Assembly (NCBI RefSeq): GCF_000026545.1
Contig: NC_011601.1
Source of the DNA: Escherichia coli O127:H6 str. E2348/69
GTDB taxonomy: Bacteria > Pseudomonadota > Gammaproteobacteria > Enterobacterales > Enterobacteriaceae
Strand: one strand, 5' to 3'
Length of the DNA: 64,000 nt
Of the stretch, positions 49,301 to 58,300 are shown one piece after another. Within the stretch, counting starts at the first letter, position 1. Each line of letters begins with the position of its first letter. The position numbers were made by a program.

Positions 49301-52300
49301 TGAAACCGATTGAGGTGGATGGCTCTAATGAGATGGGGCAACTGGCAGAGAGTTTGCGCCATATGCAGGGAGAGCTGATGCGTACCGTCGGTGATGTGCG
49401 CAACGGGGCCAATGCCATCTATAGCGGTGCCAGCGAAATCGCCACCGGCAATAACGATCTCTCTTCGCGCACCGAGCAACAGGCCGCTTCGCTGGAAGAG
49501 ACGGCAGCCAGCATGGAGCAACTGACCGCAACGGTGAAACAGAATGCCGAAAATGCGCGCCAGGCCAGCCATCTGGCGTTAAGTGCTTCCGAAACGGCGC
49601 AACGCGGCGGCAAAGTGGTGGATAACGTGGTGCAGACCATGCGCGATATCTCCACCAGTTCGCAGAAAATCGCCGATATTATCAGCGTAATTGACGGCAT
49701 TGCCTTCCAGACCAATATTCTGGCTTTGAACGCGGCGGTTGAGGCTGCGCGTGCGGGTGAGCAAGGGCGCGGTTTTGCGGTGGTCGCGGGAGAAGTGCGT
49801 AATCTGGCCCAGCGTAGCGCTCAGGCTGCTCGTGAAATTAAAAGCCTGATTGAAGACTCGGTGGGGAAAGTGGATGTTGGCTCTACGCTGGTCGAAAGCG
49901 CCGGGGAAACAATGGCGGAGATTGTCAGTGCCGTGACCCGCGTGACGGACATTATGGGCGAAATTGCTTCTGCTTCTGATGAGCAGAGCCGTGGTATCGA
50001 TCAGGTTGGCTTAGCGGTTGCTGAGATGGACCGGGTAACCCAACAAAACGCCGCGCTGGTGGAAGAATCTGCCGCTGCCGCCGCCGCGCTGGAAGAGCAG
50101 GCCAGTCGCCTGACCGAAGCAGTGGCAGTGTTCCGGATTCAGCAACAGCAGCAACAGCAGCGTGAAACATCGGCTGTAGTAAAAACCGTGACGCCAGCTA
50201 CGCCGCGTAAAATGGCCGTGGCAGATAGCAGCGAGAACTGGGAAACGTTTTAACGTAATGATGCCGGATGAGTATTTCATCCGGCGTTTTTATTATTAAA
50301 CCAGGAACAGTGAAATCGCCGGGATATATGTCACCAGCATTAGCATTAACAGTAGAGCCGCCAGTAGGGGCAGGGATTGTTTAAAGAAATTTCCCACCGA
50401 AACTTGCGTGATATTACATACCAGCAGCATCACGGTACCTACCGGTGGCGTGAATGCGCCAATCGACAGGTTGAAGATCATGATGATGCCAAAATGCACC
50501 GGATCGATGCCAAAGTGTTCGACCACCGGTTTTAATAGTGGTACCAGGAGCAGCAAAATGGCGTTTCCTTCCAGAAACATCCCCAGCGTCAGTAGCAATA
50601 TGTTGATAATCAACAGGAACATGTATTTGTTTTCGGTCAGCGAAGTCACAAAATTCGCCACTGCGACACCAGCATGTTCCATTGAGAAAATCCATCCCAA
50701 TGCGGCGCTGGCCATGATTACCAGCATCACCGATGCGGTTGCGCGTGCCGTTTCGCCCAATGCTTTGACGACATGAGAAATCCGCATTTCACGATAGATA
50801 AAAAAGCCAATCGCCAGCACGATTAGCACCGCTACTGCACCTGCTTCTGTTGGGGTGAAAATGTTAGCGCGAATACCACCCACCACAGCAAAAATGAGGA
50901 ACAGCGCAGGCCAGGCCTGTCCCAGCGAGAACACCACCTCTTTGCACGTAGGCCAGCTTTCACGCGAGGGTTTAGCGTTAGTTTTGCGGGCGACAAGGTA
51001 GACGGTAAACATCAGTACGACTGCGCATAGCAAACCAGGTACCAGTCCGGCGATAAACATTTTTCCGATAGAGACGTCGGCAACCAGACCGTAAATAATC
51101 AGGGCTATTCCAGGCGGTATGATCGGGGTGACTAACGAGCCACCAGCGGTAATGGCGGCGGCAAACGCGCGGTTGTAGCCTTTACGCTCCATCTCCGGCA
51201 CCATCATGCGCGACAGCATCGCCGCGTCAGCAAGGTTAGAGGCGCTGACGCCGCCCATCATGGTGCTGACGAGAATGTTTGCCACGCCCAGTCCGCCGCG
51301 CATTTTCCCCACCAGAACGTTGGCAATGTGCAGGATGCGTTCGGCAATGCCGGTGTAGCTCATTAGTGTGCCGAGCAAGATAAAAAACGGAATTGCCAGC
51401 AATGATGGGCTTTGCGTTGGCGCGATTAGTCTTTGCACGGCAATTTCAATCGGTACGCTGGAGAAGAATAAAAAGTAAGCGATGATGCCAATAAACATCG
51501 CCAGATAGACCCGAATGTTGAGAAACAAACAGACGATCATTAGCGGAATAATCAATAACCAACTCATTGCATTTTGTCTCCGCTATCGGATTGTTTTGTA
51601 TCGTTTATTAACCAGTAGAGGGTATAAATAGCCGTTGCCAGTGCGCCGACAGGGACCGCCAGATCGATCCAGAACCAGGAAACCTTCAGAATTTGTGTCA
51701 CTTTAAACTGCGCCATTTCGGCTAGTCGGTAGCCCAGCCAGGCCATATAAAGCAGCAGTGCGATGGAGAGAAGGGCGACCAGTACTGCAATAACACGCCT
51801 GAGTTTGCCTGGAAGCATCTCCATCAGGAAGGGAATGGTCAGGTGCGCCCTGTCACGTTCTGCCACCACTCCACCTAACATCACCACCCAAATCATCAGC
51901 ATTCCCGACATTTCTTCTGTCCATTGAAGCGGTTGGCCGATGAAATAACGCATAAATACCGCTCCAATTGTCACCACAACCAGAACGAATAGCGCAAAGG
52001 CAGCACTAAATTCTGCCACTTTGCCAAAAAGACGCATGAAACCTCCTGTTAGTGCGTGTCCTGCCTAAGAGAGATGAGGCAGGACGCTGAGCATTAATGC
52101 TTATTGCAGTTGCTGTTGAATGGTTTCGTACAGACCTGGTGTCCATTCCGGGAATTGAGAGTAAACTTCGCGTGCTTTCTTCTGGAATGGTCCAGTATCG
52201 GGATAGATCACTTCGACGCCGGCTGCCTGCATGGTTTTCAACATTTCGGCATCACGCTCAAGAGTGAGTTTCTGGCTATAGACACCCGCTTCATAGCCGG

Positions 52301-55300: not shown

Positions 55301-58300
55301 AAACGCGCGGCTATTTACCAGATGCGCGCAAGGCAAGAAGTCAGTGATGAAACACTGGCAAAAATAGTCAGTGAATTAGATGTGCTGGAAACGTTAATCA
55401 TGGATAGCCGATAATTTTATCGCTGCCAGTAATAGGGAATTAAATGATGGCTGAGAGTAATACTTCCAGCATCGTTTATTCCCTATGTATTTCCTTATGG
55501 GCAGAACAATCGCCTGGATTAATACTGCATTAATACAACATAGTGATATAAACCAAGAATCAATGTTTTTAATCTGTACTTAATTTATTGGTGATGTTGC
55601 CTGATGGAACGAATCATTGATTGTTTGGCGGTATCCAGATGGTTTCGCAACGCCGTTATTGCATCTAAATCGCTACGGCAAATCAGGGCGCTGAGAATGG
55701 TCATATGTTCATCAACAGCAATGATATTGCGCTGTTTGAGATCGCTTTCATCCCATTGATAGTGAAAATGAAAGATCACCGATATAATTTCAAGTGATTG
55801 ATTAAAAAAGATGTTGTCAGCAGCGGATAACAGCATGGCATGAAAATCACGGTCTAATTGAGAAAACATTCGAAAGTTGTTGCCAATGCTGTCGCGCAAT
55901 GTCCTGTGACGTTCGAGCATGGTTTTCGCCTGCAACCAGCGAGGGTCATCATCGGGAAGGTTGAGAAAGTGTTGCAGGGAATGTGTTTCGAGCATTTCGC
56001 GTAGCTCAAACAGCTGCTCGGCGTAGGATTGATCGAACTGCTTCATGCTCCATTGGCCGCGCTTTTCGCTTTGAATAAGATTATAACGACCGAATTTCAA
56101 AAGATATTCTCGTACCACTACCGGACTGACGCTTGCCGCTCGCGCCAGCTGAAGTTCGGAAAAGCTTTCTCCGGCGCGTAACTGGCGCAGGTTAATCATG
56201 GTGAAAAATGCCTGCTCGAAAAGACGGTTTTGCTCTTTCAGCGAGGCCGTGATGCAATCAAATCCATCGTTCTGTTCGGGTTTGCGGGCGATAACATAAT
56301 TTTTCCCCACCAGGGTGAGCACGCCACATGCGCTTAAATGCTGGAGTATGTGGCGTACCGTAGTGCGACTGATGTTATACATTTCTGCCAGTCCGCTTTG
56401 TGAAGGCAGCGGAGAAGGAATATTGCCCCTCGCCATATCTTCAATCACCTGATTTATGACGCTATGACGTAAATTCTGCGAACGACTCATTCTTCCCTCC
56501 AGTCCGGCATTAAAAGCCGATTTAAAACATTTTTATGCGCGATCATCCGCATATTTTATGGGTAAATTCAGGCGCTCTTATAAATTCGACGATATCTGAA
56601 AGTCATAAAATAAAAGGAGCGGTGAATCATGTCCACAATGAAAGTATTAATTTGTCAGGAAATAAAGAATTTAGTATGGGAAGTCCGGGAAAGACCGGTG
56701 CCAGGCGATAATGAAGCATTAATTAAAATTAAAACTGTCGGGATTTGCGGTACAGATATTCATGCCTGGGCGGGCAATCAGCCATTTTTCAGTTATCCAC
56801 GCGTTTTAGGCCATGAAATATGTGGGGAGATTATTGAATCAGGAAAAAACATTCACAATTTTAATATCGGACAGCAAGTTGCGGTAATTCCGTATATTTC
56901 TTGTCAGCAATGCCCGGCGTGTAAAAGCGGTCGTACCAATTGCTGTGAAAAAATTTCAGTCATTGGCGTGCATCAGGATGGCGGTTTTAGTGAGTATTTG
57001 AGCGTGCCGGTGGCGAACATTTTGCCCGCAGACGGTATTGACCCGCAGGCGGCAGCATTGATTGAACCTTTCGCTATTAGCGCTCATGCGGTGCGTCGCG
57101 CAGCCATTGCTCCCGGCGAGCAGGTGCTGGTGGTCGGGGCGGGGCCAATCGGTCTGGGCGCGGCGGCAATCGCTAAAGCCGATGGCGCACAGGTGGTGGT
57201 GGCGGATACCAGTCCGGCGCGCCGTGAACATGTAGCAACGCGTCTGGAATTACCTGTTCTGGACCCGTCAGCCGAAGATTTTGACGCGCAGCTGCGGGCG
57301 CAGTTTGGTGGTTCGCTGGCGCAGAAAGTGATTGACGCGACAGGTAATCAACATGCGATGAATAACACCGTAAATCTGATTCGTCACGGCGGCACGGTGG
57401 TATTTGTCGGCCTGTTTAAAGGTGAGTTGCAGTTCTCCGATCCGGAATTCCATAAAAAAGAAACGACGATGATGGGCAGCCGCAACGCCACGCCGGAAGA
57501 TTTCGCTAAAGTCGGTCTATTGATGGCGGAAGGGAAAATCACTGCCGACATGATGTTAACCCATCGCTATCCGTTCGCCACGCTGGCAGAAACCTACGAG
57601 CGCGATGTGATTAACAATCGTGAGTTGATTAAGGGCGTAATTACTTTCTGATAAGGCGAGATTATTCAAGTTGCCATGCAGCGTCCGGGGAAGTGTTGGG
57701 CGCTGTTTTTTTTCTGTTTCTCAATAATGTTTTGTAGGCCGGAGAAGGTGTGTAGGTCGCACCTTATGCGACCTACACATCAGTCAGGAATTACCCTTCA
57801 CGTTCTACCACTTTAATTTCCACCATGCCGATCCCGAGCTTACGCGGCGAGTGCCCGAGGATATTCCCTTCGTTGGTTGAGACAGGTTCCGGTGGCACAA
57901 TTACCAGTGTGTCGGCATCGGTTGGGTTATCGAAATGCAGTGTGGTGGTGGTCACTTCATTGCCCAGCACAAGGGTTTGTTCTTCATTGCCTACGCGTAC
58001 CGGAATAGGACGGCTGGCGTTATTGCCGTATGCTTTGGCGGTAATCACCAGGTCAAATTTCTTCGGCAGCGGATGCTTGTACTCGATTTTTACTTCATCG
58101 CCCAGCTGTGCGTTGGACCAGCGGCCCCACGACTCTGGACGAGAAATCCCGCTAAACTGTTTCACCTCTTCTGGCGCACCAGCGACGTTAAAGATGAAAC
58201 TGTCGGCTTTGTAGCGAATATCGTTATCAACAATCTTTAGCGTATCGACATTGCCTTTGTAACGCGCCATGTCGATGACCGTATCTTTAAATGCCGTTTT

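Follow-up and report, generated by a model that had tools for sequence, protein, structure and literature searches.

The 64,000-nucleotide (nt) stretch of Escherichia coli O127:H6 str. E2348/69 analysed here (RefSeq assembly GCF_000026545.1, contig NC_011601.1; "the window" in the following) contains, in the 5.3 kb between tsr and lgoR, a block of genes for a TRAP (tripartite ATP-independent periplasmic) transporter and a Na+/H+ antiporter. This interval is a 100% match to the E. coli E2348/69 record NZ_CP059840.2, in which RefSeq annotates four genes, among them the TRAP large permease, the TRAP small permease and the Na+/H+ antiporter, flanked by tsr on one side and by a GntR regulator, lgoD and opgB on the other; an independent list of open reading frames (ORFs) agrees with this picture. 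The arrangement proposed in the first-pass annotation, with dctM, dctQ and dctP on the minus strand and a divergent CPA1 antiporter gene, is borne out by the ORFs, NCBIfam and RefSeq alike. We consider it likely that the block represents an alternative lgo haplotype, in which a DctP-type TRAP transporter for L-galactonate takes the place of LgoT, and which has been inactivated in E2348/69 by a one-base deletion. The features of the locus are as follows (aa, amino acids).

50296-51567, minus strand: dctM, TRAP large permease, 423 aa, intact (TIGR00786)
51564-52037, minus strand: dctQ, TRAP small permease, 157 aa, intact (RefSeq annotation; PF04290 on orthologues)
52101-52952, minus strand: longest dctP-like ORF, 283 aa (ORF call)
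52101-53071, minus strand: full dctP gene, a frameshifted pseudogene in E2348/69, 323 aa in its intact form (frame repair)
53026-53032, minus strand: T7 homopolymer, site of the 1-nt deletion in dctP (T8 in nearly all other carriers)
53245-55562, no strand: insertion of ~2.3 kb relative to the Citrobacter lgoR-dctP spacer (homology gap)
53741-55414, plus strand: antiporter ORF, 557 aa from the longest frame (ORF call)
53762-55414, plus strand: CPA1 Na+/H+ antiporter, a paralogue of YjcE, 550 aa, intact (TIGR00831, homology boundaries)
55585-56490, minus strand: lgoR, GntR/FCD-family regulator, 301 aa, divergent allele of the TRAP haplotype (identity to K-12)
56629-57651, plus strand: lgoD, L-galactonate 5-dehydrogenase, 340 aa (RefSeq annotation, identity profile)
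50132-56951, no strand: segment differing from the K-12 haplotype (identity in 200-nt windows)

The large permease DctM scores 400.7 bits against the TIGR00786 model of NCBIfam (cut-off 268) and aligns over its full length with SiaM of Photobacterium profundum (PDB 7QHA, E=1.4e-79). The stop of dctQ overlaps the start of dctM by 4 nt, and its annotation in RefSeq as a "TRAP transporter small permease" is supported by Pfam PF04290 on its orthologues and by a weak match to YiaM. DctP with its reading frame repaired passes the TIGR00787 cut-off (179.5 bits vs 175), and in the haplotype at large (ABU 83972, NIID080884, 95-3322) it is a 323-aa binding protein with a signal peptide. The system has the same three-component architecture as SiaPQM of Haemophilus, Photobacterium and Vibrio, with separate Q and M genes as in Photobacterium, but differs from it in substrate, and the substrate-binding proteins (SBPs) are 26–29% identical. 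The residues R148, R168 and N208 of DctP, invariant in 24 orthologues, would correspond to the carboxylate-binding R127, R147 and N187 of SiaP, a match made by coordinate offset and not by residue-level alignment. Two Na+ sites have been defined in the SiaQM structure, and TRAP transport is Na+-driven (PMC9971032). The serines, the threonine and the twin-proline motifs of the Na1 and Na2 sites are retained in DctM (S108, S110, PP151-152, G329, G370, T373, PP374-375), and sodium coupling of DctQM, which had been proposed at first sight of the locus, may therefore be reasonably expected. YiaMNO, the other DctP-type TRAP transporter of E. coli K-12, also carries a sugar acid (2,3-diketo-L-gulonate); it is only distantly similar and not an orthologue, since the window proteins fall short of the equivalog cut-offs, DctM with 240 bits (cut-off 800) and DctQ with 36 (cut-off 260). 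A 477-aa protein from the "eukprot" set (P0001), which is 100% identical to E. coli DctP over 97% of the query and carries in addition a DctQ domain, probably stems from bacterial contamination of this eukaryotic data set or from gene calls merged in error.

At this position K-12 MG1655 carries lgoT alone between tsr and lgoR, and the block is absent, as the first-pass annotation had stated; its presence in K-12, which would have refuted that proposal, is thus not observed. The same annotation took the block for an insertion between tsr and lgoR, and this view has to be revised. The profile of identity to K-12 in 200-nt windows is at 97–100% up to ~50131 and again from 56952 on; within 50132-56951 there is no K-12 homology for 50254-55563, and the remainder is 70–89% identical where it can be aligned. 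The differing segment starts in the 3' end of tsr, takes in dctMQP, the antiporter gene, lgoR and the promoter region between lgoR and lgoD, and ends ~320 nt into lgoD. With its K-12 counterpart LgoR shares 86.7% identity, and with that of Citrobacter 85.4%; the K-12 and E2348/69 proteins are each 85–86% identical to Citrobacter LgoR, i.e. they are no closer to each other than to the latter. In LgoD, residues 1–107 are 81% identical to K-12 and the remainder 99%, which puts the predicted recombination breakpoint ~320 nt into the gene. A simple insertion into a K-12-like locus is ruled out by the sequences of lgoR and of lgoD in its 5' part, which are as far from K-12 as from Citrobacter; the pattern is that of an allelic replacement in which lgoR was swapped too. 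Since lgoR and the 5' part of lgoD have diverged from K-12 in this way, the regulator and the promoter region appear to travel with the type of transporter. Two patches of lower identity stand out against a 98–100% background, namely 48333-48531 in the btsT-tsr intergenic region (92%) and 50132-50253 at the 3' end of tsr (88%), the second of which is the left edge of the replaced haplotype.

Among 5426 complete E. coli genomes, lgoT is present in 4520 and the block in ~860 (859 with at least 80% coverage), which leaves almost no room for overlap; the synteny comparison across E. coli genomes called for by the first-pass annotation thus finds lgoT and the block close to mutually exclusive. The block occurs in two sub-haplotypes ~2.5% apart (97.5% identical), both with the antiporter, and LgoR of the window is 98.7% identical to that of the second one. 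Earlier work has already documented the gene block, where it occurs and that it excludes lgoT: the pangenome study of Beavan et al. 2023 (PMC10769857) reports that lgoT never co-occurs with nhaK, siaP and siaT, without describing them as allelic variants of a single locus that share a function. What appears to be new is the reading of the block as an L-galactonate importer, the frameshift in E2348/69, how far the replaced segment reaches, the recognition of the antiporter gene as an insertion, and the recurrence of the antiporter near a second TRAP system. The published "avoidance" of lgoT/mdtM versus nhaK/siaP/siaT would be better read as two alleles of one locus. As for mdtM, E2348/69 lacks this gene together with most of hsd/mcr/mrr between yjiN and yjiA (window ~40900-44500, record 4219753-4223291), where all that is left is part of a type I restriction gene, symE, a GntR pseudogene and a gene for a 3'-5' exonuclease. 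This variable hsd/mcr/mrr region lies 4–10 kb from the lgo locus, and physical linkage to it may explain the "avoidance" between mdtM and nhaK.

The antiporter itself scores 526.5 bits against TIGR00831 (a_cpa1; cut-off 279.6) over profile positions 1-525 of 525, and its homologues carry Pfam PF00999. Its start is most likely ATG 53762 (550 aa), according to RefSeq and the homology boundaries. The description of the protein as YjcE-like in the first-pass annotation is correct: it is 58% identical over its full length to K-12 YjcE, an uncharacterised CPA1 homologue of the same size that is annotated just as a "putative transporter", and the two share the SPTDAV and LMNDASG motifs. We take the TD and ND of these motifs to be ion-binding (ND as opposed to the DD of electrogenic CPA2 proteins), from what is known of the NhaP and NHE structures. 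The antiporter nevertheless differs from YjcE in that it forms a distinct clade at a different locus, has an accessory distribution and, both in Escherichia and in Klebsiella sp. I138, adjoins TRAP operons. Chimeric exchanger genes are also present in E. coli contigs. One of them (L092, 7001-8653) joins YjcE(1-~290) to antiporter(~300-550) and lies between soxR-ghxP and lgoR-lgoD-opgB; another (L096, 1133-2782) joins antiporter(1-150) to YjcE(151-549), between the window-type dctP and LysR/LrgAB/actP. Such chimeras imply recombination between the antiporter and YjcE paralogues, whose genes lie ~310 kb apart; the breakpoints of the two differ.

The first-pass annotation also treated the exchanger as part of the sodium-driven uptake route, and in this respect the comparison with other genomes is unfavourable. 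We surveyed 80 orthologous lgo-TRAP loci from other genomes (one-genome-per-species representatives, 58–91% SBP identity, neighbours within 10 kb), and none of the 80 carries the antiporter, which speaks against its being an integral component of the transporter; it is missing likewise from the separately checked loci of Citrobacter, Pectobacterium and Brucella. Homology to Citrobacter farmeri runs through dctMQP, ends at 53084 and resumes at 55564, and the lgoR-dctP spacer, 171 nt long in Citrobacter, measures ~2.5 kb in E. coli. The additional DNA (53245-55562) consists of an AT-rich upstream region of 517 nt, the antiporter coding sequence (CDS) and a 3' flank of 148 nt, with a GC content of 32–36% at 53000-53999. 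At each of its edges lies a direct copy of a 22-bp element that occurs three times in the locus:

56507-56530, plus strand: copy 1 (GCATTAAAAGCCGATTTAAAACAT), in the divergent lgoR/lgoD promoter region; kept in K-12, Citrobacter and Pectobacterium
55563-55584, minus strand: copy 2 (ATTAAGTACAGATTAAAAACAT), directly after the lgoR stop, at the proximal insertion edge; the same position is filled in K-12, Citrobacter and Pectobacterium
53221-53244, minus strand: copy 3 (GCATTAAAAACCGATTAAAAGCAG, 22–24 bp), 150–170 nt upstream of the dctP start, at the distal insertion edge; matched in alignment by the sequence just 3' of lgoR in K-12 and Citrobacter

The homology gap relative to Citrobacter and the element copies at its edges show the antiporter to be a secondary insertion, which entered a Citrobacter-like lgoR-dctPQM arrangement; the copies mark where the insertion begins and ends, and dctP has retained the upstream sequence native to it.

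The 16-mer GCATTAAAANCCGATT within the element is found exactly twice in the 64 kb (in the 56507 region and at 53229-53244), compared to 0 expected from 100 shuffles. With a relaxed pattern, the 22-bp AT-rich element is seen to flank lgoR in inverted orientation in both E. coli haplotypes, in Citrobacter and in Pectobacterium; the pair is present in the comparison locus L002 (5921-5942 and 6871-6894), and also in L006 and L008. The copy upstream of dctP is a candidate operator, to which LgoR might bind. This is weakened by Pectobacterium, where the second copy is situated at the 3' end of lgoR and not upstream of the transporter, and it may be lgoR itself, not dctP, that the element serves. 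As for the pair flanking lgoR, it might act as paired operators in DNA looping or be left over from the boundary of a cassette. Among other cis-signals, the Rfam scan of 50000-57000 with E-values up to 1 detected no RNA family, promoter-like sites were in no excess (12 vs 11.7 in shuffles), no convincing GntR-type palindrome (T.GT...AC.A) was found in the intergenic regions, and in the terminator scan only the tsr terminator hairpin at 50260-50288 stood out.

Is the antiporter nonetheless a functional partner of the TRAP system, which exchanges the co-imported Na+ for H+, is co-regulated with it from the shared divergent intergenic region of 669 bp, and has been selected for this role? We regard this as quite possible, if short of probable. 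The antiporter and the TRAP genes co-occur perfectly in E. coli (PMC10769857), in both sub-haplotypes, and TRAP transport is sodium-driven. Among the matches listed, close relatives outside Escherichia occur in four contexts. The nearest, in Klebsiella sp. I138 and in a Limnobaculum metagenome-assembled genome (76–77% identical), are again divergent to a dctPQM operon with a GntR regulator, a different TRAP system whose SBP has 353 aa and is 26% identical to the window one. The closest relatives of that TRAP system lie in sugar-acid clusters without the antiporter, which suggests two independent juxtapositions. A third relative, on a metagenome contig, adjoins an enolase-superfamily dehydratase, an aldolase and a transporter of the Pfam family Na_sulph_symp, which is typically Na+-coupled. 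That one clade of exchanger recurs, in one and the same orientation, at two TRAP systems unrelated to each other is suggestive, albeit in a very small sample. On the other side, the survey of orthologous loci and the late insertion with its AT-rich flanks count against such a partnership; the independent contexts outside Escherichia number about four, of which that in Edaphovirga is a plasmid with MatE genes and without TRAP, and the copies of Klebsiella and Limnobaculum, with 95% mutual identity, may go back to a single event. Moreover, E. coli already has NhaA, NhaB and YjcE, and the search for a shared operator upstream of the antiporter detected none. That the antiporter recycles sodium is a plausible hypothesis. 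We also considered whether a Klebsiella-like TRAP locus had donated the antiporter together with its upstream region as a single mobile unit; this cannot be shown, since the DNA homology of the antiporter to its relatives is confined to the coding sequence (53757-55393). A tblastn search for a plasmid copy of the clade detected none and yielded, besides one chromosome-sized E. coli record, only YjcE-like proteins (56–58%) and ~40% homologues.

Concerning the substrate, the suggestion of the first-pass annotation that the TRAP system is an alternative route for L-galactonate or a related aldonate receives support from the lgoD/uxaA/uxaB context, the synteny with Citrobacter and the exclusivity with lgoT; it probably does not hold for E2348/69 as such, in which the gene of the binding protein is frameshifted. 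Repaired DctP matches Oant_3902 of Ochrobactrum anthropi (PDB 4OVT) with a phmmer E-value of 7e-147 and ~70–75% identity, and an Actinobacillus succinogenes protein (4O8M) with 42% identity. Its AlphaFold model (pLDDT 89) superimposes on 4OVT with a Foldseek E-value of 5e-48, TM scores of 0.90/0.96 and a root-mean-square deviation of 1.4 Å at 70% identity. By sequence, fold and context, DctP belongs to the Oant_3902-type orthologous group, a tight one with identities of 60–91%, and the system would work in the manner of the aldonate TRAP transporters characterised by the Enzyme Function Initiative (EFI). The two EFI proteins share the group and the fold with the E. coli one, which, in contrast to them, is encoded at the lgo locus in the place of lgoT, with a Na+/H+ antiporter added.

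Gene context constitutes independent and stronger evidence on the substrate than do the structural relatives. In the window, lgoD lies 3.5 kb from dctP, i.e. the transporter is linked to genes of L-galactonate catabolism. Among the orthologous loci, a LgoD-like dehydrogenase is encoded in 68, a UxaA-like protein in 57 and a UxaB-like protein in 49 of the 80; 56 of the 68 loci with the dehydrogenase also have a UxaA- or UxaB-like gene. Citrobacter farmeri and C. amalonaticus display a syntenic locus (opgB-lgoD-lgoR-dctPQM-(acetyltransferase)-tsr), while Pectobacterium has lgoR/lgoD-dctPQM at another chromosomal site. In Brucella sp. (Ochrobactrum-related), with an Oant_3902-type locus, genes for a uxaB-like, a GntR, a uxaA-like and a lgoD-like protein precede dctPQM, so that the whole L-galactonate route is found together, with the same kind of neighbours as at the lgo locus. 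LgoT has been described as the specific L-galactonate importer of K-12 (bioRxiv 10.64898/2026.05.20.726482). Given this specificity, the lgo gene context and the shared position, a non-orthologous displacement of the L-galactonate transporter LgoT by the TRAP system is predicted as the most likely explanation. LgoT (YjjL), an MFS/ACS-family L-galactonate:H+ symporter, resembles the block in its position downstream of lgoR and next to tsr, in the substrate deduced for the latter and in the downstream LgoD; it differs in being a single, proton-coupled polypeptide of an unrelated family without a binding protein, and the two are alternative alleles that do not co-occur.

Several points weigh against L-galactonate as the substrate. 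The LgoD-like genes of alphaproteobacteria encode proteins only ~35% identical to E. coli LgoD, and a function is ascribed to them by their context; for the proteins of the E. coli block, data on transport, binding or growth were not found. 4OVT is reportedly a complex with L-fuconate and 4O8M one with L-galactonate, and the closest solved homologue would then point to L-fuconate; full-text literature searches by PDB codes and locus tags retrieved no statement on the ligand of either structure. Both L-galactonate and L-fuconate are listed among the ligands of TRAP SBPs by Vetting et al. 2015, as cited in PMC5507952 and PMC12076931. Or perhaps the TRAP system imports another acid sugar, such as L-fuconate, L-gulonate or a uronate, so that LgoT is not functionally replaced and the carriers of the block cannot use L-galactonate? 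A TRAP transporter of Chromohalobacter with dual L-fuconate/L-galactonate specificity is known (PMC5507952), and LgoD acts on L-gulonate too, to judge from the title of Kuivanen and Richard 2014 as cited. We nevertheless find this alternative unlikely, as the conserved neighbours LgoD, UxaA and UxaB belong to the L-galactonate route and are not L-fuconate dehydratase genes, the transporter of Enterobacterales has been joined into the lgoR/lgoD unit, and lgoT was replaced at the very same position with lgoD kept intact.

Other clusters of the same kind were encountered in passing. A second related TRAP cluster, whose SBP and DctM are 72% and 76% identical to those of the window, is found between gltA and abrB in ~106 of the 5426 E. 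coli genomes (L097, 7911-15716, E. coli IMT16316) and in E. whittamii (L013, L015). Its partners, i.e. a split UxaA-family hydrolase, a short-chain dehydrogenase/reductase, a zinc-dependent alcohol dehydrogenase, an RraA-family protein and a FadR/GntR regulator, indicate that it probably serves another aldonate pathway. The TRAP genes of the BEN2908 paper were considered as well and belong to a different locus (ygiQ-ftsP). Elsewhere in the window, gntP, encoding a permease of the GntT/GntP/DsdX family, is reduced to a remnant beside uxuA-uxuB-uxuR (~24516-24623, record 4239641-4239748), another sugar-acid transporter gene lost in E2348/69.

The lesion in dctP of E2348/69 can be described precisely. 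The true start is ATG 53071, preceded by GGAG, and the frame shifts after codon 15 at the T7 run (53026-53032). The frame that begins at this ATG encodes MSKIIAMLITVSTFF and then meets a stop; the main dctP frame, which differs from it by one base in the T7 run, is open across the 5' stretch and has no start codon there. One added T restores a 323-aa DctP with the signal peptide MSKIIAMLITVSTFFLPSIIQA followed by KP; after this typical signal peptide the repaired protein continues with KPISIKVAYENNPGEP. The 283-aa ORF of the window lacks the signal peptide and the first strand, hence in E2348/69 the product does not have the features of an exported binding protein. An intact dctP CDS of 972 nt from the same ATG is annotated in ABU 83972, NIID080884 and 95-3322. 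Comparison of 91–92-nt probes for the T-run alleles with the 5426 genomes found the exact T7 allele in 9 of 858 carriers, namely E2348/69, two O127:H6 records, MS20657 and N17/N24/N39/N47/N64, all nine of which are without an annotated CDS under the probe. In nearly all of the remaining ~850 carriers the alignment across the probe shows one extra base relative to E2348/69, and among the non-T7 matches listed all but one have a full-length annotated CDS beneath. We conclude that the lesion is genuine and confined to the genomes that share the T7 allele, and that it does not reflect an assembly error.

TRAP permeases strictly depend on their own binding proteins, as is known for SiaPQM, and the system is thus predicted to be inactive in E2348/69. 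The TRAP route of this strain is probably non-functional, with dctQ, dctM, lgoR, lgoD and the antiporter gene still intact, and the strain is expected to make no use of L-galactonate through the TRAP locus. Phenotype data on growth of E2348/69 with L-galactonic acid were not found in the literature; a positive result on L-galactonic acid lactone is on record for the type strain DSM 30083, which may carry either lgo haplotype. In strain 74-2 (NZ_CP050044.1) the insertion sequence IS5 lies inside the TRAP/antiporter block, apparently another independent disruption. It is highly improbable that slippage on U7, transcriptional or translational, supplies full-length DctP in amounts that leave the system partly functional or phase-variable: the lesion does sit in a 7-T homopolymer where a -1 slip would restore the dctP frame, and all the other genes remain intact, but the run is T7 in 9 of 9 allele-carrying genomes, so that the tract is not switching, it falls outside the canonical X-XXY-YYZ frame as read from the sequence, and slippage on 7-nt runs is generally inefficient.

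In the model that we favour, the common haplotype would import L-galactonate by the proton symporter LgoT. In the alternative one, periplasmic DctP would capture L-galactonate and probably the close aldonates L-fuconate and L-gulonate and hand the ligand to DctQM, which would move it inward with Na+; LgoD would then oxidise L-galactonate to D-tagaturonate for the UxaB/UxaA pathway. The TRAP haplotype would bring its own diverged LgoR and promoter region, and the gene for the CPA1 Na+/H+ exchanger would have been inserted later between lgoR and dctP. The exchanger may expel the co-transported Na+ for H+, in which case uptake would ultimately be paid by the proton gradient. In E2348/69 and the other strains with the T7 allele, loss of one base from T8 is predicted to remove the signal peptide of DctP and to leave the system non-functional.

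The pairing of the antiporter with TRAP systems is the part worth follow-up. One could speculate, although we hold it rather doubtful, that a YjcE-like CPA1 clade has been recruited repeatedly as a fourth, sodium-recycling part of the sugar-acid TRAP systems of Enterobacterales (divergently upstream of dctP, in at least two unrelated TRAPs), which would let Na+-coupled import run on the proton gradient in bacteria that, like E. coli, energise their membranes mainly by protons; lgoT versus TRAP plus exchanger would then be a balanced polymorphism of long standing, in which a low-affinity proton symporter is set against high-affinity, sodium-coupled scavenging of L-galactonate in the gut. If the link with the exchanger is true, it would amount to a principle for energising TRAP transporters in hosts with mainly proton-based membrane energetics. 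The block is present in ~16% (about one in six) of E. coli, including many extra-intestinal and enteropathogenic lineages, and is now labelled merely as a "C4-dicarboxylate TRAP transporter" and a "Na+/H+ antiporter"; our analysis proposes a concrete and testable function for it. The two haplotypes would then constitute a natural experiment, in which a proton symporter and a binding-protein-dependent sodium transporter serve the same substrate within one species, and which may help to reveal when high-affinity scavenging pays in the gut.

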